Positions 2,903 through 22,746 of a stretch of DNA of 23,605 bases are shown piece after piece. The stretch covers positions 1 through 23,605 of the forward strand of contig JBJHDK010000015.1 of NCBI GenBank assembly GCA_050486505.1, in the 5' to 3' direction. This DNA comes from Fibrobacteria bacterium. GTDB lineage: Bacteria > Fibrobacterota > Fibrobacteria > UBA11236. Each line of letters starts with the position of its first letter. Position 1 is the first letter of the stretch. Position numbers and translations under genes: made by a program. The notes below the pieces were generated by a model. It searched no databases. It had not been told where the DNA came from and saw nothing but the letters and a program-made list of their open reading frames with translations.

Positions 2903-3574
2903 ATGTTCATCGGACACTATGCCCTCGGGTTCGCCGCGAAGAAGGTCGCCCCCGGCGTCTCGCTCGGAACCCTCTTCCTCGCCGCGCAGTTCACCGACCT
3001 GCTCTGGCCCACCATGCTCCTCCTCGGCTGGGAGCGCGTCGCCATCGACCCCGGCAACACCGTGGTCACCCCGCTGAACTTCATCAGCTATCCCGTCACC
3101 CACAGCCTCGTCGCCGTCGTGTTCTGGGCCTGCGCCTTCGCCATGCTCTACATGTTCATCCGCCGCTACGTGCGCGGCGCGGTCACCGTGGGCCTGCTCG
3201 TCGTCAGCCACTGGATCCTCGACCTCATCACCCACCGTCCCGACCTGCCCATCGTGCCCGGTGGTCTCACCGTCGGCTTCGGCCTCTGGAACTCCCTCGC
3301 GGGGACCCTGATCGTCGAATTCGGGCTCTTCGCCGTCTGCGTGTGGATCTATCTCCGCACCACCGCCGCGAAGAACCGCACGGGAATCTGGAGCCTCTGG
3401 GGACTGATCATCTTCCTGGCCGTCGTGCACCTTGTCAACATTTTCGGCCCGCCGCCCCCGAGCGTGAGCGCCATCGCGTGGGCCGGCCATGCCATGTGGC
3501 TGCTGGTGCTGTGGGGTTACTGGATCGACCGCAACCGGTCGGTGCGTACGGTGCGTGCCAAGGAGGACTCATGA
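2903..3574 (+). CDS. membrane-bound metal-dependent hydrolase (YdjM/DUF457-like), 223 aa
   Basis: MFIGH start, DLLW, THSL and SHWILD motifs, multiple hydrophobic helices, SD AAGGAG at 2891-2896. Confidence 0.8.
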   Translation: MFIGHYALGFAAKKVAPGVSLGTLFLAAQFTDLLWPTMLLLGWERVAIDPGNTVVTPLNFISYPVTHSLVAVVFWACAFAMLYMFIRRYVRGAVTVGLLVVSHWILDLITHRPDLPIVPGGLTVGFGLWNSLAGTLIVEFGLFAVCVWIYLRTTAAKNRTGIWSLWGLIIFLAVVHLVNIFGPPPPSVSAIAWAGHAMWLLVLWGYWIDRNRSVRTVRAKEDS

Positions 3575-3957
3575 GGGGAGGGGCATGGGGGGTGTTCTCC
3601 GCAGCCCTCCTCTGCGCCGGGGGGGGCTCCGTCGCGGATGTGTACGCGGATGTCTATGCGGATGACTACGAGGAAGACTGCGCCTGCACGCTCGAGTATC
3701 GCACCAACATCTGCGTGACGGTGGACGGGAGCGAAGTCCTTTCCGACACCCTCGACTTCCTCCGCGAACGGCAGGATGGATCCCGCGACTCTTTGGAGTA
3801 TCATCCGCGCTGCTTCGGGGAACTCGTGGGAACCCAGCGCATTCTCATGCTGCGTGGCGGCACGGTGATCGATTCATCTGCGTGGTTCACCACGCGCAGG
3901 GTTGATTGCTGCCACGGCGAAGCGAAGACGATCGAATTCGTGCGCGTCGTGCGATAG
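3571..3957 (+). CDS. small exported Cys-rich hypothetical protein (128 aa)
   Basis: SD AGGAGG at 3561-3566 and ATGA overlap with the upstream stop. Short hydrophobic N-terminus, with CACTLEYR and DCCH motifs. Confidence 0.72.
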   Translation: MRGGAWGVFSAALLCAGGGSVADVYADVYADDYEEDCACTLEYRTNICVTVDGSEVLSDTLDFLRERQDGSRDSLEYHPRCFGELVGTQRILMLRGGTVIDSSAWFTTRRVDCCHGEAKTIEFVRVVR

Positions 3958-3960
3958 CGC

Positions 3961-4345
3961 GGAAGCTTTTGAGTTGTGGGGGAGAGGGCGAACCGCGAAG
4001 GAGCTCCCTGCACAGACACCGTGCCTGCCAGGGTGGCTCCCCGCGGTCTTCCACCCATCCGGAGGAAGGACTGCGCCGGGCTACGGGCTTCGCGATGCTT
4101 CGTTGCCCTCCTCGCGATACCTGAAGTATCGCTGCGTCGGGCACCTCGCCTCGCTTGCCCTCGCTCCGGCTCGCCACGCTTCGAGCGAAGCGACGAGTCG
4201 AAGCCCGGTCAAACTCACCGGGGCCGGAGCTTCGGGCCGTTGTGCTCCGTTGCTCCTGACCGCGGGGTGGCTCCACTCGGGAGGACCACCAAACTTTTTG
4301 GGATCGCCGGGGGTCTCATGAGGAAGATCCGGTACGACCCGATGA
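3961..4345 (-). ncRNA. candidate large structured RNA or structured repeat element (family not recognised)
   Basis: Nested helices 4000-04/4270-74, 4006-10/4029-33, 4039-48/4258-67, 4075-4170 and 4226-30/4244-48. G-U pairs and purine-rich loops favour the minus strand. TATATT at 4350-4355 on the minus strand. Confidence 0.45.
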
Positions 4346-4461
4346 CTTCAATATACCCTCGCGACCCGGATTTTGGATCAGGGTCAGGCAAGGGTTAAAT
4401 CGTTGATTTTCGAGGATTTAGGTGGGTCCCGACCAAAACGTCGAGATTTGCCCGCCTGCTG

Positions 4462-5580
<1,119 letters not shown>

Positions 5581-5609: not shown

Positions 5610-5638
5610 AATCTAACGTTTGGTGCTCACTTGTGCAA
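5610..5638 (-). promoter_or_regulatory. sigma70-type recA promoter TTGCAC-N17-TAGATT
   Basis: -35 at 5633-5638, -10 at 5610-5615, 17-nt spacer. Confidence 0.7.
5624..5637. promoter_or_regulatory. LexA (SOS) box, Fibrobacter type TGCNC-N4-GTGCA
   Basis: TGCTC-ACTT-GTGCA is an exact match to the motif reported for Fibrobacter succinogenes LexA, and it overlaps the recA -35. Confidence 0.8.
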
Positions 5639-15146: not shown

Positions 15147-15345
15147 GGCAAAGAAACGTTTGGGTGGAATCGCCAGGGCTTCAGTAGTCCGTTTTTGAGG
15201 AATTTCCGGGAACCTATGATTTTATTACGGAAAAAGTTCGTTTTAGTACTGCAGGATACCGGAAGAGGGGGTAAATTTGTCCCGGCGCAGGCCCCCGCTT
15301 TGGCGAGGGCCTCTGTTTTTGCACTAATCAATGAGGGAGATACGA

Positions 15346-17682
15346 ATGAAAACGTTGATGATTCTTGGGGCTGCATGCCTCTCCATGGTGGCGGCGGCTG
15401 TCGCCCAGCCTTATGCCAGCTGGGACCGCTACCGTGAAGTCACGATTAATACGACAAATGCGAACGGCGGGGCCAATGTCGCCGAGGCCGTCGAAAATTT
15501 CCCGGTGCTGGTTCGTCTTTCCACGTTCGGCGGAGCCGCCACCGGCGGCAACGTGCTGACGGAAGCCCTTGCTGGCGGCGCGGACGTGCGCTTCACTACC
15601 GCTGACGGAAGCACGGCCCTCCCTTATCAGATCGATTACTGGGGCGAATCGTCCGCGGCCATCTGGGTGCGCGTGCCGACCGTAGCCGGGAACGCGAATA
15701 CCACCATCCGCATGTACTGGGGCCGCGCCGGCGAGACCAGCGCGTCGAATGGCGCCGCGGTGTTCGATACGGCGGCGGGCTTCACTGGAGCTTGGCACCT
15801 TCACCAGAACGGCGGGGGTACCGGGAATGTTCTTGATGCAACCGCCAACGAGTTGCATTTCAACGGGCATGAAAACGTTCCGGCAGTGCCGGGCGTGATC
15901 GGCAACGCCCGTCACTACAATGCAAGCGAAGAAGACAACACCTTCTGGGTCGATAACTTCACCGGGGCGGCGAATGCCACCAAGGCCCAGAACTTCGTTG
16001 CAGCTGGCACCAGCACCTTCATCACCATCTCCGCCTGGGTGAACCCCCAGTTCAACAGCGGGCAAGACATCCAGGGCATTTTCGGTCACTACCGCTACAA
16101 CACCAACAACCGCAGCTATCACCTGTCCCTAGCCGGCAACCCTGCCGGCGCTGTTCGCATCAACACTTCGGCGAACGGTACGGCGGACCGCGTGGTGCAA
16201 ACCACGGGAACGCCGCTGGCGAACCTGAACCAGTGGTACCATGTGATGATGACCATCGAGAGCGGCGTCGCCGCGAACCAGCAGATCAAGGTATACGTCA
16301 ACGGTGAAGCCCAAGCCATGGCGAACCATGCTACCCAAGGGATTTTCGCCGGCAGCGTGGCCAACAACGCCGATCGTCCCTTCATCGGCGCCATGAATAC
16401 CCAGTGGAACCACCGTTTCGGCGGCTTCATCGATGAGTTGCAGTTCTCCAACGGCGTGGCGCGCTCCGCCGACTGGGCCAAGTTGAGCTACGAGACGCAG
16501 AAGCCGGGTGCTTCCGCCGTCACGCTCGGAGCCACGGTCGCACCGGGCCGCGCGTTGTACTACCCCCTCAAGAATGCGGTGTATCTCCTGAATACCGCCA
16601 TCGACGCCAACACCCCGGTGACCTCGGGAGCCGTGACGGGGAACTTCGCCATTACCCCCACCTCCCTGCCTGCGGGCCTGAGCTTCAACGCCAGCACGGG
16701 CGCCATCACCGGCACTCCCACGGCGACCACGACCACTGCGCAGGAGTATCGCGTGACGGCGACCGTCGGCGGCAATGCCGCGAGCGACACCATCACCATT
16801 TCCGTGACGGCCGGAACGCCTCCGAACCCGCCGACCAACGTCACGGGCGTAATGAGCAGCGGTCAGGTCCAGGTTTCCTGGTCGGCTCCCTTGGTGACGG
16901 GCAGCGCGCCCATCACCTCGTACGTCGTGCGCGCGGTCGAGGACACGAGCAAGACCTGCACTTGGACCACCGGCGATCTCACGTGCGCGGTGACCGGCCT
17001 GACCAACGGAACGGCCTACACCTTCACGGTGCGTGCCATCAGCGGCGCGGGCAGCAGTGATGCCTCCGCGCCTTCGGTGGCCATCACACCTGCCGGCCGT
17101 CCGGTCGCCCCCACCGGCGTTCAGGTCGAGTTGCTCTCCGGCGCCGGGCAGAACGCCACGGCCACGGTTTCCTGGACGGCTCCGACGTCCGACGGCGGCC
17201 TGCCGATTTCGGGAACGTTCGTGTTCGGCGAACCCTCGGGCGCCTGCTTCGCGCCGGCTCCCAACACCAGCTGCACGGTGTCGGGCCTCGCGTATGGAAC
17301 CCCTTACACCTTCCGCGCCGCGGCCTCGAACAGCGTCGGCATCGGGGATACCTCGGCGGCCTCCGCAGCCTTCACTCCTGTGTCCATTCTGCCGGGCAGC
17401 TTCGTGCTGCAGGCGACGGGATCGGCTCAGCCCTTCACCTTCGTGCTTTCGCAGGATGCGATCGCCAGCACGGATGCCTTCACGATGACGATCAGCGATG
17501 TCTGGGGACGCACGGTTTGGTCGCGGACGGTTCACCCCGCCCGCGACGGTAGCCGCGAGCTGACCTGGAACAGCCGCAACACCAGCGGCCAGGTCGTGTC
17601 CTCGGGCATGTACGTGGTGCGCGTGACGATGCAGAACGGGGCGAATGCCACCAACTTCATCGAGCGCACGGTCAAACGCTGA
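15346..17682 (+). CDS. secreted DUF2341-LamG-HePIG-2xFN3-sorting-domain protein, paralog 1 (778 aa)
   Basis: SD GAGGGAG, signal peptide MKTLMILG...AVA|Q, NFPVLVRL, GADVRFT, IWVRVP, MYWG, ISAWVNP, FIDEL, LPAGLSFNASTGAITGTP, GLTNGTAYTFTVRA, DVWGRTV..W...GQVVSSGMY. Confidence 0.88.
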   Translation: MKTLMILGAACLSMVAAAVAQPYASWDRYREVTINTTNANGGANVAEAVENFPVLVRLSTFGGAATGGNVLTEALAGGADVRFTTADGSTALPYQIDYWGESSAAIWVRVPTVAGNANTTIRMYWGRAGETSASNGAAVFDTAAGFTGAWHLHQNGGGTGNVLDATANELHFNGHENVPAVPGVIGNARHYNASEEDNTFWVDNFTGAANATKAQNFVAAGTSTFITISAWVNPQFNSGQDIQGIFGHYRYNTNNRSYHLSLAGNPAGAVRINTSANGTADRVVQTTGTPLANLNQWYHVMMTIESGVAANQQIKVYVNGEAQAMANHATQGIFAGSVANNADRPFIGAMNTQWNHRFGGFIDELQFSNGVARSADWAKLSYETQKPGASAVTLGATVAPGRALYYPLKNAVYLLNTAIDANTPVTSGAVTGNFAITPTSLPAGLSFNASTGAITGTPTATTTTAQEYRVTATVGGNAASDTITISVTAGTPPNPPTNVTGVMSSGQVQVSWSAPLVTGSAPITSYVVRAVEDTSKTCTWTTGDLTCAVTGLTNGTAYTFTVRAISGAGSSDASAPSVAITPAGRPVAPTGVQVELLSGAGQNATATVSWTAPTSDGGLPISGTFVFGEPSGACFAPAPNTSCTVSGLAYGTPYTFRAAASNSVGIGDTSAASAAFTPVSILPGSFVLQATGSAQPFTFVLSQDAIASTDAFTMTISDVWGRTVWSRTVHPARDGSRELTWNSRNTSGQVVSSGMYVVRVTMQNGANATNFIERTVKR

Positions 17683-17700
17683 TTCCAGCGAAACCCGACC

Positions 17701-17735
17701 AAAAAGGCCTCCCGGAGACGGGAGGCCTTTTTTTT
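17701..17735 (+). terminator. intrinsic terminator after paralog 1
   Basis: AAAAAGGCCTCCCG-GAGA-CGGGAGGCC followed by T8. Confidence 0.92.
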
Positions 17736-17872
17736 GCCCGCACCGTGATGCCCATATTTTCTCGCAAATCACCCGTGCAACCGGAGCGGGGGCCATAGAT
17801 TAGGGGGCGCGGGGACTTGGCGCTTCCGCCGGGCAGTTCTTCGTCGACGGCCCGAATGCAGGGGGAAACTTC

Positions 17873-20155
17873 ATGAGGAAGCTCGCAATGATGGCTGCGC
17901 TCGTCGCGCTGGCTGCAGGGGTCGCCCACGCGCAGGTCTATGGTGCCTGGGCCAAGTACAGAACTGTCATGATCAACACCACGTCGGCCAACGGCGGCGC
18001 CGGGGTGGAGACGACTCAGGCGGATTTCCCCGTCCTCGTGCGCTTGACCAACCAGGCGCTCTCCACAGGCGCGAATGCCTTGTCGGAGGCCCTGCCAAAC
18101 GGGGCCGACCTTCGCTTCTCCAACGCGACGGGAGATGTCGCCCTTGCCTACGAGATCGAGCACTGGTCGGCGTCGGGCGCCGACATCTGGGTCCGTGTGC
18201 CCTCGGTGGCGGGGAACGGTACCACGACGATCCGCATGTACTGGGGCAATTCGTCGGCTGTCAGCGAATCGAACGGCCCCGCCGTCTTCGACACGGCCAA
18301 TGGTTTCGCCGCCGTGTGGCACATGAACGGAGCCGGTGCGGGGGGGCAGGTCGACGAAGTCGATGCCACGGGCGGCGGACTGACGGCCACGCAATTCAGC
18401 ACCGGTGGCGGCAACCCCGCCAGCTCCGACGAAAACGGCGTGGGCTATTTCCGCGTCTTGTCCTCGTCGAGCAACACGGCCGGACAGGGCTTCACGACGA
18501 ACAACCCCGATCGTGCGAATTTCACGAGTTCCCAGAGTTACAAGGTGTCCGCCTGGGTGAATCCGACTTCCGTGGATCACAACGCGTATCCCACCATCGC
18601 CAGCAAGCACGACAACCTCTGGTCGTTGCGGGCCAACTCCGCTGCGGTCGGACCGTGGCTGTTCTTCTACGGGCCGACTCCGTGGCCGGGTGCGACTTCG
18701 AGCACCAGCGCGGTTCTGGGCCAGTGGCAGCATGTCGCCGGTGTTCGTGATGTCTCGGACAACTCCCTGCGGATCTACGTCAACGGCGTTCTCGCCGGGA
18801 GCAACACCAGTGCCGCGCCGGGCGGTACGCAACCGCAGAATACATCGGTGGCCATCGGGCGGCGCAGCGAAACCGCGGACCGGTTCTTCAACGGTGCCAT
18901 CAGCGAGGTGCGCGTCGAGGGAGTGGCCCGCACGGCGGACTGGATCAAACTCGAGTACGAAACGCAGAAACCCGGAGCAACCGCAGTCACGTTCGGGACG
19001 ACGGTGAGCGTGCAGGCACGCACGTTGTTCTATCCGCTCAAGCACGCCACCTACCTGCAAAACGTGGCGATCGAGAACAACGTTCCCGTGGTGCAGGGCA
19101 CTGCATCGGGGTTCACGATCAACCCGACGGGGCTGCCGGCAGGATTGTCCTTCAACACCACGACCGGCGTGATCTCGGGCACGCCTACGTCGATCGGCGC
19201 GGCACAGCAGTATATCGTCACGGTCAACCTCCAGGGCGGGGGATCCGGGGCCGATACCCTCACCATCGCCGTGACCGCGGGGAGCCCCCCCGGCGCACCC
19301 ACCAATGTGACGGCCGTTGCGGCTCCGGGACAGGCCACGGTTTCCTGGACGGCGCCGCTTTCGAGCGGTTCTTCCGCGATCACCGGGTACACCGTGCGCG
19401 CAGTGCAGGACACGAGCAAGACTTGTGCGTGGACCTCGGGACAGCTGAACTGCACGGTTGCGGGGTTGACCAACGGAACGGCCTATACCTTCACGGTGGT
19501 GGCGAGCAACGGCGTGGGACCCGGCCCGGTCTCGTCTCCATCGTCTCCTGTCACTCCCGCCGGGCGTCCGTCGGCGCCGACGAACGTGACGGTGGCCATC
19601 CTCTTGGCGACGGGAGCCACTGCCTCCGCGACGGTTTCATGGATGGCGCCGGCTTCGAGCGGTGGCATGCCCGTGACCGGAACCTTCGTGTTCGGGAGCC
19701 CTTCGGGGGCTTGTTTCGCGGCGCAGCCCAACACGTCGTGCAACGTCATCAACCTTGCGTACGGGACCGAGTACACCTTCCGTGCCGCGGCTTCGAATAG
19801 CGTCGGCATCGGAGACACGTCGACAGCATCGGCACCCTTCACGCCCACGCCGTCTTCCCTGCTGCCGGGGAGTTTCGCGCTGCAGGCAGGTGGGGCGGCG
19901 CGCCCCTTCACCTTCGTCCTGGCTCCCGAGGCGGTCGCCAGCACCGAGGCCTTTACCTTGTCGGTTCACGACGTGTGGGGGCGCACGGTGTGGTCGCGCA
20001 CGGTGCATCCCGCGAAGGACGGCACGCGTGAACTGGTCTGGGACAACCGCAACGCCAGCGGCCGCGTTGTTTCAGCGGGGCTTTACATCGTGCGTGTGTC
20101 GATGCTGAACGGCGGCCGAACCGTCGGCTTCATCGAACGGGCGATCACGCACTGA
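17873..20155 (+). CDS. secreted DUF2341-LamG-HePIG-2xFN3-sorting-domain protein, paralog 2 (760 aa)
   Basis: Same architecture as paralog 1. Signal peptide MRKLAMMAAL...AHA|Q. LamG motifs VSAWVNP, GQWQHVAGV, LRIYVNG, FNGAISEVRV. Confidence 0.88.
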   Translation: MRKLAMMAALVALAAGVAHAQVYGAWAKYRTVMINTTSANGGAGVETTQADFPVLVRLTNQALSTGANALSEALPNGADLRFSNATGDVALAYEIEHWSASGADIWVRVPSVAGNGTTTIRMYWGNSSAVSESNGPAVFDTANGFAAVWHMNGAGAGGQVDEVDATGGGLTATQFSTGGGNPASSDENGVGYFRVLSSSSNTAGQGFTTNNPDRANFTSSQSYKVSAWVNPTSVDHNAYPTIASKHDNLWSLRANSAAVGPWLFFYGPTPWPGATSSTSAVLGQWQHVAGVRDVSDNSLRIYVNGVLAGSNTSAAPGGTQPQNTSVAIGRRSETADRFFNGAISEVRVEGVARTADWIKLEYETQKPGATAVTFGTTVSVQARTLFYPLKHATYLQNVAIENNVPVVQGTASGFTINPTGLPAGLSFNTTTGVISGTPTSIGAAQQYIVTVNLQGGGSGADTLTIAVTAGSPPGAPTNVTAVAAPGQATVSWTAPLSSGSSAITGYTVRAVQDTSKTCAWTSGQLNCTVAGLTNGTAYTFTVVASNGVGPGPVSSPSSPVTPAGRPSAPTNVTVAILLATGATASATVSWMAPASSGGMPVTGTFVFGSPSGACFAAQPNTSCNVINLAYGTEYTFRAAASNSVGIGDTSTASAPFTPTPSSLLPGSFALQAGGAARPFTFVLAPEAVASTEAFTLSVHDVWGRTVWSRTVHPAKDGTRELVWDNRNASGRVVSAGLYIVRVSMLNGGRTVGFIERAITH
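19856..20155 (+). repeat. 300-nt direct repeat, copy A (sorting domain of paralog 2)
   Basis: 294/300 identical to 22447-22746 by manual alignment, no gaps. Confidence 0.95.
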
Positions 20156-20370
20156 CGGCTGTCGCTTGCCACACGGTCGTTGCGAATGAAGGGCGTGTTC
20201 ATCAAGGGAGGCGGCAGCATTTTGGGGTCCGTGTCGGGGAACAGGATGCGACAGGGATCTTTCGGATTCCCCCCGTGGCGGAGGAGGCGTGGCGGGGTGT
20301 TCGATGGGTCGGGCGGGATGATCGGAAAGAACCTGCAATCGTTTCAGGGAGCCACAATCAGGAGGGACTT

Positions 20371-22746
20371 ATGTTGTTCTGGAGAAAAATCGCGGCGACA
20401 GTCGCACTCGCTGCTGCAACGAGCCTTTCGCAGCCGGCGGAGCTTTTCGGGCGTTATCTCGACGTGACGGTGAATACGACGGCATCGGGAGGCGGGGCAG
20501 GAGTGGATTCCGCCGTGACCGACTTTCCGTTGCTGTTGCGCCTGACTCCGGCCACGGCGGCTGCGCCGCTCGCAGAGGCGCTGCCGGGTGGCGCGGATCT
20601 CCGTTTTACGGATGCGAACCGCAATCCCGTCGCACACGAAACCGAATACTGGTCCGATACCTTGGCGATCATCTGGGTGCGGGCCTCGCGCATTGAGGGC
20701 AACGCCAACACGACGCTCCGCATGCACTGGGGAAAGGCCGGCGTTTCGAACGCATCGAATCCTTCCGGGGTGTTCAATGCGTCCAATGGTTATCTCGCGG
20801 TATTTCACCTGAACGAGGCATCGGGCGACACGATTCGCGATGCCACCGGCAATCACAAGGGAGTTCCTGCCGGGCCGGCCAATCCGGTGCACGTTCCGGC
20901 CGGCGCGGGATCCCACTTGGGAGGGGCCAAACACTTCGGTGGCGATCTCGATTCGCACCTGACCGTGGGAGGAGCCTATATCGTGCGTGCCGCCAGCGGC
21001 GCCGGATCCCACAACCTTTTCAATTTCAGCGAGCCCGATCCGCGGTTCACGATTTCGGCCTGGGTTTGGATCGACGCGAACGTGGGAACTGACTGTTGTG
21101 TCGACCGGCGTCGGGGGATCATCACCAAGGCGGATCACGGAGGTTCGACCAATGGTGCGGATCCGGAGCCGATGTCGTGGTTCATGCGCCCCAACTTTCA
21201 GACCGGGGCGAATTCCGCGTCGCGCTACCAGTTCCAGCCCGGGAGTGAAACCGCGTCGGGAGCATATACTATCGCGATGAACACCTCGAGCACGGGGATC
21301 TGGACCTATTTGAGTTTCTCCGCAACGGGCCCGGGCCTGCCGAATGCGCTCCGCGGTTACCATGAAGGCGTCACGACTTTCCTGAATTCGCCGGCCAACG
21401 ATTTTCCCGAGCACGGCGTCCCCGTTGTCATCGGCGGTTTCTGGAGCAGTCTCGCCGCCGCAACCGACAGCGTGTCGCACTTTTTGAACGGGCGGATCGA
21501 CGAGGTGCGTGTTTCCAACGTCGGCCGGACCAACGCGTGGATGGACCTTGAATTCCAGACGCAACGCCCGAACCAGACGGCTGTGGCTTACGGTGCGCCC
21601 CAGAACAACGACACGAGCAGGGTGTTCCTTTACGGCCTCCGCAGCGCGAGTTTTCTGGTCAATGCGCAAATCACGAACATTGCGCCCTACGTGAAGCCCG
21701 GAAACACCGCATCCGCCTACGCCATCGCTCCCACGCTTCCCGCGGGCCTGAACTTCAACACGACGACGGGAGTCATTTCCGGTACGCCGACATCGACGTC
21801 AGGAGTGCAGCAGTACATCGTCACGGCGACCATCGGGGGGAATCCTCACCCTGACACGCTTTCTCTTTCCGTCGTTTCCGGGACTCCTCCGGGCGCACCC
21901 GCCGGCGTCACGGCAACGGCTTCCCCTGGACAGGCCATCGTCACTTGGGGCGCGCCGACTTCGACAGGAAGCACTCCCATCACCGGCTACACCGTGACGT
22001 CTTCCCCCGGTGGCGCAACCTGCAACTGGACGACCGGGCCACTTTCGTGCACCGTCACGGGGCTGACTAATGGCACGGCCTACACCTTCACGGTCACGGC
22101 CACGAACAGCATCGGGACGGGCCCGGCCTCGTCGGCCTCCAATGCCGTGACGCCGGCCGCCAGGCCCGGCGCGCCGACTGCCGTCACGGTGGTCGGTGTG
22201 GAGGGAACTCCGACTTCGGCGACCGTGTCCTGGACGGCTCCGGCTTCCGATGGAGGCTCCGCCATCACCGGCAGCTTCGCATTCGGCAACCCCAGCGGCG
22301 CTTGCTTCGCAGCGGCCCCCGCCACCACTTGCTCGGTGAGCGGGTTGACGGTTGGCACGGCTTACACGTTCCGCGTGGCTTCTTCCAATGCGGTGGGCGC
22401 GGGTGATACATCTGCCGCGTCGGAGCCCTACACCCCGACGCCGGCGTCCCTGCTGCCGGGGAGTTTCGCGCTGCAGGCAGGTGGGACGGCGCGCCCCTTC
22501 ACCTTCGTCCTGGCTCCCGAGGCGGTCGCCAGCACCGAGGCCTTCACCTTGTCGGTTCACGACGTGTGGGGGCGCACGGTGTGGTCGCGCACGGTGCATC
22601 CCGCGAAGGACGGCACGCGTGAACTGGTCTGGGACAACCGCAACGCCAGCGGCCACGTTGTTTCAGCGGGGCTTTACATCGTGCGTGTGTCGATGCTGAA
22701 CGGCGGCCGAACCGTCGGCTTCATCGAGCGGACGATCAGGCACTGA
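20371..22746 (+). CDS. secreted DUF2341-LamG-HePIG-2xFN3-sorting-domain protein, paralog 3 (791 aa)
   Basis: SD AGGAGG at 20360-20365, signal peptide MLFWRKIAATVALAAATSLS|Q, DFPLLLRL, GADLRFT, FTISAWV, LNGRIDEVRVSN, two FN3, C-terminal domain. Confidence 0.88.
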   Translation: MLFWRKIAATVALAAATSLSQPAELFGRYLDVTVNTTASGGGAGVDSAVTDFPLLLRLTPATAAAPLAEALPGGADLRFTDANRNPVAHETEYWSDTLAIIWVRASRIEGNANTTLRMHWGKAGVSNASNPSGVFNASNGYLAVFHLNEASGDTIRDATGNHKGVPAGPANPVHVPAGAGSHLGGAKHFGGDLDSHLTVGGAYIVRAASGAGSHNLFNFSEPDPRFTISAWVWIDANVGTDCCVDRRRGIITKADHGGSTNGADPEPMSWFMRPNFQTGANSASRYQFQPGSETASGAYTIAMNTSSTGIWTYLSFSATGPGLPNALRGYHEGVTTFLNSPANDFPEHGVPVVIGGFWSSLAAATDSVSHFLNGRIDEVRVSNVGRTNAWMDLEFQTQRPNQTAVAYGAPQNNDTSRVFLYGLRSASFLVNAQITNIAPYVKPGNTASAYAIAPTLPAGLNFNTTTGVISGTPTSTSGVQQYIVTATIGGNPHPDTLSLSVVSGTPPGAPAGVTATASPGQAIVTWGAPTSTGSTPITGYTVTSSPGGATCNWTTGPLSCTVTGLTNGTAYTFTVTATNSIGTGPASSASNAVTPAARPGAPTAVTVVGVEGTPTSATVSWTAPASDGGSAITGSFAFGNPSGACFAAAPATTCSVSGLTVGTAYTFRVASSNAVGAGDTSAASEPYTPTPASLLPGSFALQAGGTARPFTFVLAPEAVASTEAFTLSVHDVWGRTVWSRTVHPAKDGTRELVWDNRNASGHVVSAGLYIVRVSMLNGGRTVGFIERTIRH
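22447..22746 (+). repeat. 300-nt direct repeat, copy B (sorting domain of paralog 3)
   Basis: 294/300 identical to 19856-20155. Confidence 0.95.

Follow-up and report, generated by a model that had tools for sequence, protein, structure and literature searches.

The gap behind recA and its RNA candidate

The window, i.e., the whole 23,605-nt stretch of DNA analyzed here, is contig C15 of a 2.4-Mb genome assembly with 63% GC (G000). Within it, a plus-strand run of thiE, a YdjM-like gene and a small ORF, which ends at 3957, converges on recA. The gap between the convergent genes comprises 504 nt (3958-4461), as a first-pass annotation of the window had stated, and is delimited by the TAG of the small ORF (3955-57) and the recA stop codon (4462-64). 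The small ORF (3574-3957) has no NCBIfam match and is found as a tandem duplicate in locus L106 (721-1400). Elsewhere in the window, positions 15331-22746 hold three tandem paralogs of 760-823 aa with DUF2341, a putative Ig, two fn3 and FlgD-Ig domains.

Comparison with homologous loci reveals, on the minus strand of the gap, a paired structure that is present in one copy, at a fixed place, and that is accompanied by a conserved promoter-like element. The RNA candidate is a predicted composite of a leader hairpin, a 5' module, an insert and a 3' module (Table 1). A LexA-box-like palindrome was found upstream of recA in all seven genus loci, and a lexA gene was found in G000; no such palindrome was found at the candidate's own promoter.

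Table 1. Features in and around the gap behind recA (window coordinates)
Feature	Position	Strand	Basis or remark
recA	4462..5580	minus	Pfam RecA, E=5.6e-140; upstream neighbor of the RNA candidate
LexA-box-like palindrome	5624..5637		before recA; sole match within the window
IHF-consensus-like site (predicted)	4396..4408	read on minus	roughly at -53 to -65 relative to the predicted +1
-10 hexamer TATATT	4350..4355	minus	predicted +1 is A at 4343
Variable leader hairpin (4301-4340) and A/U-rich linker (4291-4299)	4291..4343	minus	fold prediction
5' module (H1-H2)	4212-4290	minus	conserved
H1, short hairpin, loop CGAGU	4266..4290	minus	100% of cells paired; both-sided changes in 2/9 pairs
H2, long hairpin, base invariant, tip variable	4218..4265	minus	94.6% of cells paired; both-sided changes in 2 pairs
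Unpaired joiner UGAGUU, conserved	4212..4217	minus	5' edge of the insertion site
Variable insert, 143 nt in G000	4069..4211		homolog comparison
Dispersed ~100-bp imperfect palindromic repeat, one copy	4072..4169		BLAST and profile search
3' module (H3-H4)	3990-4068	minus	conserved
H3, short hairpin, loop GGAUG	4048..4068	minus	21 nt invariant in 7/7; one both-sided change, in G008
H4, 3'-terminal long hairpin, tip CACGGUG invariant, without U tail	3990..4047	minus	alignment and fold

The first-pass annotation had proposed a new minus-strand ncRNA distinct from RNase P RNA, tmRNA, SRP RNA and 6S RNA, which the Rfam, paired-structure and promoter comparisons support. Rfam 15 gave no match over the gap at E≤1 (window scan) or at E≤5 in six orthologous loci, and narrow scans at E≤10 gave chance matches only (≤19 bits). 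Rfam reportedly holds most of the families from the Weinberg surveys. The candidate is predicted to fold as a chain of hairpins and not, as expected of 6S RNA, as a single long rod with a central bubble and paired ends. The sequence at C96:4352-4535, which shares 78% identity with the RF00013 match of G002, is the likely 6S RNA of G000; RF00013 itself misses it. A reduced RNase P RNA came into question since the 99%-complete G000 assembly yielded rnpA but no rnpB; however, the gap has no P4 motif, and G004, G005 and G011 hold the candidate as well as a full RF00010 match elsewhere. The tmRNA and SRP RNA of G000 lie on contigs C23 and C11, and ARAGORN makes no call in the gap. A bacterial Y RNA was rejected, as Ro60 (TROVE) was found in none of five genomes and no cloverleaf was seen. 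What we took to be resemblances to a cobalamin riboswitch and to group II domain V, along with one to the T-box treated below, have no Rfam support and the wrong context. Finally, a small peptide was rejected because 1-2-nt indels in the 3' module (79, 80 or 81 nt) break the frame and no frame is conserved.

Conserved fold, long-range pairing and insert

Without its insert the candidate measures 155-158 nt and is predicted to fold as H1, H2, joiner, H3 and H4. Predicted lengths of the full RNA range from 276 to 461 nt among the homologs; the 360 nt predicted for G000, counted from 4343, agree with the 350-400 nt proposed earlier. In natural alignments of the two halves, 94.7% and 96.6% of cells pair, and both-sided changes occur in 6/27 and 4/25 pairs, numbers reached by 0 and 1 of 500 shuffles, although this control can overstate covariation because only 7-8 related sequences were compared. 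When the alignments were slid, paired cells dropped to 38-58%; these covariation controls are generous, as each half is represented by seven related rows from which the structure was itself predicted. Among the individual helices, H1 (4266-70 with 4286-90), which the first-pass annotation did not include, shows a compensatory change from UA to CG in G011 and L132, and H4 shows both-sided changes in five pairs across its two helices. The base of H2 has a probability of 0.92-0.99 in all seven folds, and CCCCGGUGAGU at the joiner is unchanged in all eight homologs. Invariant bases cluster in short loops and at stem bases, and stem tips covary.

The modules are 79% and 81% identical, compared with 62.5% at fourfold sites of recA and a mean of 36% (n=8) in the leader, whose hairpin is predicted in all seven folded homologs. 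Some of this conservation could reflect a general constraint on hairpins, since the six embedded copies of the repeat are 81% identical as well, compared with 58% among dispersed copies.

The minus strand, as proposed earlier, is favored by 32 G-U cells against 5 A-C cells. Moreover, for positions 3995-4285 of G000, a shuffle test gave z-scores of -4.02 on the minus strand (0/200 shuffles as good) and -2.11 on the plus strand (3/200), and the insert-free core has minus-strand z-scores of -2.0 to -4.0 in six of six homologs. Folding z-scores alone fail to pick the strand, because they are stronger for the plus strand in G005 and G011 as well as in the natural G009 stretch (-2.31 for plus versus -1.85 for minus). 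Single-sequence fold predictions are not clean either, since in full-length folds H3 has a probability ≤0.02 in 3/7 and H1 ≤0.2 in 2/7; the H4 base has a probability of 0.01 in G011.

The first-pass annotation had instead closed a three-way junction by long-range pairs. Its sequence elements are all there, namely GGAGC (4000-04) and GCTCC (4270-74), the 10-bp complementary pair 4039-48/4258-67 and the 10-mer repeated at 4031-40 and 4265-74. As the ground state, however, the junction is contradicted: it is a minor fold (P ≤0.04), and the long-range 10-bp helix has a probability of 0.00-0.04 in full-length folds of seven homologs, with penalties of 2.0, 3.5, 5.2, 5.8, 7.2, 13.2 and 13.4 kcal/mol relative to the local hairpin chain. 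That this helix can form in all seven is largely due to the self-complementary CCGCGG held by both arms, which allows strands to be swapped. Likewise, the 9-bp pair 4084-92/4199-4207, read earlier as a switch, exists in G000 but is not conserved, its arms being present in only one of seven inserts.

A two-state switch could nevertheless be built on the long-range form, with a ligand or protein flipping the hairpin chain so that CCCCGCGGUC pairs with GACCGCGGGG and GGAG with CUCC; we regard this as improbable. Its eight G-C pairs are invariant in 7/7, the only adjacent change (A to G in G011 and L132) retains a G-U pair, and in H4 only the right strand varies or mismatches, the left one being invariant, as would be expected if it paired with a second partner. 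The energy gap is 2.0-7.2 kcal/mol in five of seven homologs, against about 13 kcal/mol in the other two. Both-sided changes unique to the long-range form number none, and G008 lacks the partner strand, with a probability of about 1e-8 for a substitute helix. Such a flip would open the base of H4, letting transcription or decay continue antisense to thiE, the YdjM-like gene and the small ORF; H4, however, has no U tail with which to terminate.

All five hairpins listed earlier are there as sequence, but those at 4177-92 and 4205-21 fall, in whole or in part, within the variable insert, and the long one (4075-4170) is a copy of a dispersed repeat. The insert has a length of 0 nt in G009, where the flanks are joined, and of 139-210 nt in five other homologs; in G004 it is longer and ends at the contig edge, leaving only the 5' module of that genome visible. 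In L132 the insert (about 1535-1665) is mostly other sequence, including a GTAG-led short palindrome that resembles a classical REP, hence the insertion site collects different repeats.

A profile search found 11 copies of the repeat in G000 at E<0.01 and none in a reversed-genome control, and the repeat is abundant in congeners. By a rough ORF call, 10 of the 11 copies sit on the 3' side of a gene or, in one case, of the 6S RNA. No copy lies within a credible gene, the sole ORF overlap, on C96, spanning the 6S region; dispersed, palindromic and intergenic, the copies are those of a REP/ERIC/RPE-like repeat. One of them (C96:4542-4634) abuts the 3' end of the likely 6S RNA, and the repeat likewise lies beside 6S RNA in G001, G005 and G010, as judged by flanks. 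In many dispersed copies (for example L017, L021, L023, L027 and L029), copy-specific flanks lengthen the stem as inverted repeats of adjacent DNA, which suggests insertion into existing hairpins or inverted target duplication. Matches to the Y1 transposase (PF01797) were weak and partial and were found in 3/12 genomes, one of them without repeat matches. H2 was also considered as an old copy, but at E≤100 the repeat HMM matched neither the gap of G009 nor that of G008.

G009, which has no insert, is the sister of the insert-bearing G004, and the simplest reading of these sequences is that the repeat inserted once in the ancestor of the clade and was later lost in G009. The repeat tree weakly agrees, placing the six embedded copies in one group (86/74) together with three dispersed ones.

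Distribution, promoter and origin

Eight homologs of the RNA candidate were identified, all of them behind recA (G000, G004, G005, G009, G010, G011, L106 and L132). Five of eleven congeners carry the modules that flank the repeat directly behind recA; L106 was added by a metagenome scan and L132 by a genome scan. The latter, a pattern scan of genome contigs, gave 11 matches, of which 5 were without modules, 5 were known sequences and thus uncounted, and 1 was new (L132). The L132 record is labeled Polyangiaceae, yet its recA nests beside that of G011 (100/99); it is probably a mis-binned contig. The eight homologs group in a single recA clade (94/95), to which G008 is sister (100/99), in a tree for which the G009 and L132 rows were partial. 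Outside the genus, models of the two halves had no matches in 39 genomes of the order or 150 of the phylum, with the best 29-117 candidates scored per genome, so that weak homologs may have escaped; weak BLAST matches in G008, G014, G016 and G059 lie inside long open frames and were discarded. The RNA is thus found in one clade of one genus, represented by 2 of the 150 genomes sampled across the phylum.

These data also bear on whether the stretch as a whole is a non-autonomous mobile element, as the first-pass annotation had allowed, or a functionless pile of hairpins. A dispersed repeat does lie inside it, and the ends of mobile elements can carry IHF sites, like that described below. However, each module has one match per genome, on the same strand and always behind recA, and tracks the recA tree; no match was found in viral contigs (two patterns), phages (core query) or plasmids (repeat query), and the modules show purifying selection and covariation. 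For the whole RNA, single-copy and at the same site in 8/8, either reading is extremely improbable; a mobile or repeat character holds for the ~100-bp piece at 4072-4169, one of 11 copies.

The minus-strand TATATT noted in the first pass is in place; it is unchanged in all eight homologs and is followed 7 nt downstream by a purine, the predicted +1, in all eight, although the surrounding DNA is only 36% identical. TAnnTT is the -10 form of this lineage, since it occurs ≤60 nt upstream of 27 of the 47 tRNA calls in G000, where 1.3 would be expected. TATAAT precedes none of these 47 calls, and the lineage form may be written TAnnTT(T). An E. coli-type promoter scan found no promoter at the candidate, and a clear -35 box is lacking. 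Further upstream, a site resembling the IHF consensus, WATCAR-N4-TTR, was found in six of the eight homologs and is missing in G011 and L132. Its distance to the -10 hexamer is 40 bp in G000 and 49, 50, 50, 50 and 50 bp in the other five, the G000 spacing thus being one helical turn shorter. Such sites number 47 genome-wide in G000, which has three HU/IHF-family genes, two of them best-scoring to IHF models and none above the cut-off.

A terminator search over 3900-4550 called none. Read-through from recA, as had been suggested, is therefore possible, making recA a possible source of transcripts that enter the candidate, and the 3' end of the RNA must form without a U tail.

The outgroups point to where the candidate may have come from. 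In G008, H3-H4 lie about 100 nt after the recA stop codon and the 5' module has no match. In G002 and G007, CGGAUGGG is found in a small predicted hairpin at most ~25 nt after the stop codon, followed by what appears by eye to be a U-tailed terminator; the R1 model gives these two motifs no score. In G001, G003 and G006 the recA 3' flank was off the contig or not retrieved. From this series of CGGAUGGG motif (G002, G007), H3-H4 (G008) and full RNA, we infer that the RNA gene grew stepwise from the recA 3' UTR, with H3 as its putatively oldest piece. In the sister genus g4, the recA terminator is preceded by a different conserved hairpin, whose loop is CCUCACUGCUC, in 8/15 genomes (L053, L054, L057, L058, L060, L061, L067 and L070, one of them being the unpublished G025). 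It has one match in each, all at recA and within ~230 nt after the stop codon, and constitutes a further candidate recA 3'-UTR RNA, unrelated to the first.

Instead of a separate gene, the candidate could be the 3' UTR of the cinA-recA transcript, overgrown with a hairpin chain that, BIME-like as in E. coli and with an IHF site, protects recA mRNA against 3' exonucleases or is released as a stable piece after SOS induction. This is a serious alternative, if on balance unlikely. The homologous piece lies 20-110 nt after the recA stop codon in G002, G007 and G008, where no such promoter is seen, no terminator is called between recA and the candidate, and most repeat copies (10/11 by the rough ORF call) follow gene 3' ends. 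In addition, roles in mRNA turnover and in IHF binding are described, in the parts of the literature consulted, for REP and BIME elements (PMC3479197, PMC2817692). By comparison, TATATT with its purine (8/8), invariant within poorly conserved DNA, and the phased upstream site are signs of a promoter at the DNA level, and invariant loops would be needless for plain stabilizing hairpins. The most probable reading, held tentatively and somewhat short of an even chance, is instead that of a stand-alone ncRNA gene grown from the recA 3' UTR, most likely one that binds a protein.

Possible function and relation to known systems

Searches for the usual partner proteins with Pfam models found no Hfq, ProQ or Jag_N in five genomes (including the carriers G000, G004 and G005) and no CsrA, a GGA-loop binder, in these three carriers. 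CsrA was absent from the one genome analyzed here (0/1) and was found in 1/5 congeners, G002, which is without the full RNA. A CsrA sponge, a Y RNA and a client of Hfq, ProQ or KhpB were thus rejected.

A trans-acting small RNA that pairs with mRNAs independently of Hfq, through GGUGAGUU, the GGAUG loop or the opened arm of H3 (CUUCCUCC, anti-Shine-Dalgarno-like), is considered decidedly unlikely. Short single-stranded segments of the candidate are invariant, and 3' UTRs are a known birthplace of base-pairing small RNAs. However, seeds were not enriched near 1339 predicted start codons, five of them giving 1, 2, 3, 4 and 4 matches where 1.6, 1.1, 4.4, 3.8 and 3.3 were expected; the best-looking target proved to rest on a false start codon, and one match fell within the coding region of an upstream gene. 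The loops are, moreover, short and G-rich, the U tail is absent, and Hfq, ProQ and Jag_N were not found.

Protein binding fits best because the modules appear independent, the loops are invariant, the spacer is tolerated, and neither a downstream gene nor targets were found. Since different insert lengths are tolerated, no fixed geometry between the modules is expected, and since the genes around the 3' end converge, there is no downstream gene to be controlled in cis. For a stand-alone, protein-binding RNA the following course can be proposed. The housekeeping sigma factor would start transcription at 4343, helped by a DNA-bending protein of the HU/IHF type bound one or more helical turns upstream, and the LexA-controlled recA transcript could contribute read-through after DNA damage. 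The RNA would fold into two modules independent of each other, both made up of a short hairpin, whose five-base loop is conserved, and a long hairpin that starts with CCGCGG. The loops CGAGU, GGAUG and ACGGU and the joiner GGUGAGU may be presented to a protein, with the RNA acting as decoy or scaffold, and H4 may protect the 3' end. The spacer between the modules would tolerate from 0 to >200 nt, having taken up the palindromic repeat once, in the ancestor of the clade.

A bolder version, which we consider doubtful, is that of a young RNA gene assembled from a UTR hairpin with the GGAUG loop, a second module, an IHF-phased promoter and a domesticated repeat. Boosted by the SOS response, it would now serve a new kind of RNA-binding protein as a decoy or as a two-state switch, in a lineage in which no Hfq, ProQ, CsrA, KhpB-type protein or Ro60 was found.

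RNA regulation in Fibrobacterota is little described, the literature found consisting of motif surveys and a Fibro-purF paper. Weinberg et al. (2017) screened intergenic regions of Fibrobacteres (PMC5737381), and the main text of that paper contains no word starting with 'recA'; at the level of abstract openings, the literature consulted (including PMC7668255 and PMC2864571) does not describe the candidate. With covariation in its support and the usual RNA-binding partners not found in the genomes that carry it, this RNA could lead to a new partner, and the outgroup series offers a compact case of an ncRNA gene that arises from a 3' UTR and absorbs a repeat, even if the RNA reaches no further than a single clade of one genus.

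Among known systems, the candidate's GGGUGGAAGACCGCG resembles the T-box sequence, GGGUGGNACCGCG. A T-box riboswitch was rejected, since the segment has two extra bases (9 nt compared with the 7-nt UGGNACC bulge), antiterminator, terminator and downstream gene are absent next to a convergent neighbor, the motif is broken in G008, which has no UGG there, and Rfam gives no match. The repeat in the insert is palindromic, intergenic and located mostly after gene 3' ends, as are REP, BIME and ERIC elements; it differs from these in its low copy number, in being a single long hairpin of ~100 bp and in having no GTAG-type start that was seen, and the Y1 transposase, with its weak partial matches, does not appear to track it. 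A dispersed palindrome inside a structured RNA gene has a parallel in Rickettsia bellii, where a palindromic element is reported to lie within the tmRNA (PMC1458961). Compared with the 526 copies of that element, there are 11 here, which are intergenic and of which the inserted one is itself conserved; in addition, the host RNA here matches no catalogued family.

As in small RNAs derived from 3' UTRs, the oldest part of the candidate is found in the recA 3' UTR of outgroups, but the candidate is larger, heavily structured and apparently has its own promoter, in genomes where Hfq and ProQ were not found. The predicted stand-alone RNA with its own promoter and several hairpins with short conserved loops, one of them GGAUG, is also like CsrB and RsmZ; csrB has an IHF-type site upstream, as does the candidate. 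It is unlike them in having one GGA loop, in H3, with the other GGAs paired, where CsrB and RsmZ have many, and in lacking a csrA in the carrier genomes searched, a U-tailed terminator and an Rfam match. Overall, the candidate is judged to represent a new RNA family, narrow in distribution and familiar in kind, that carries an inserted repeat.
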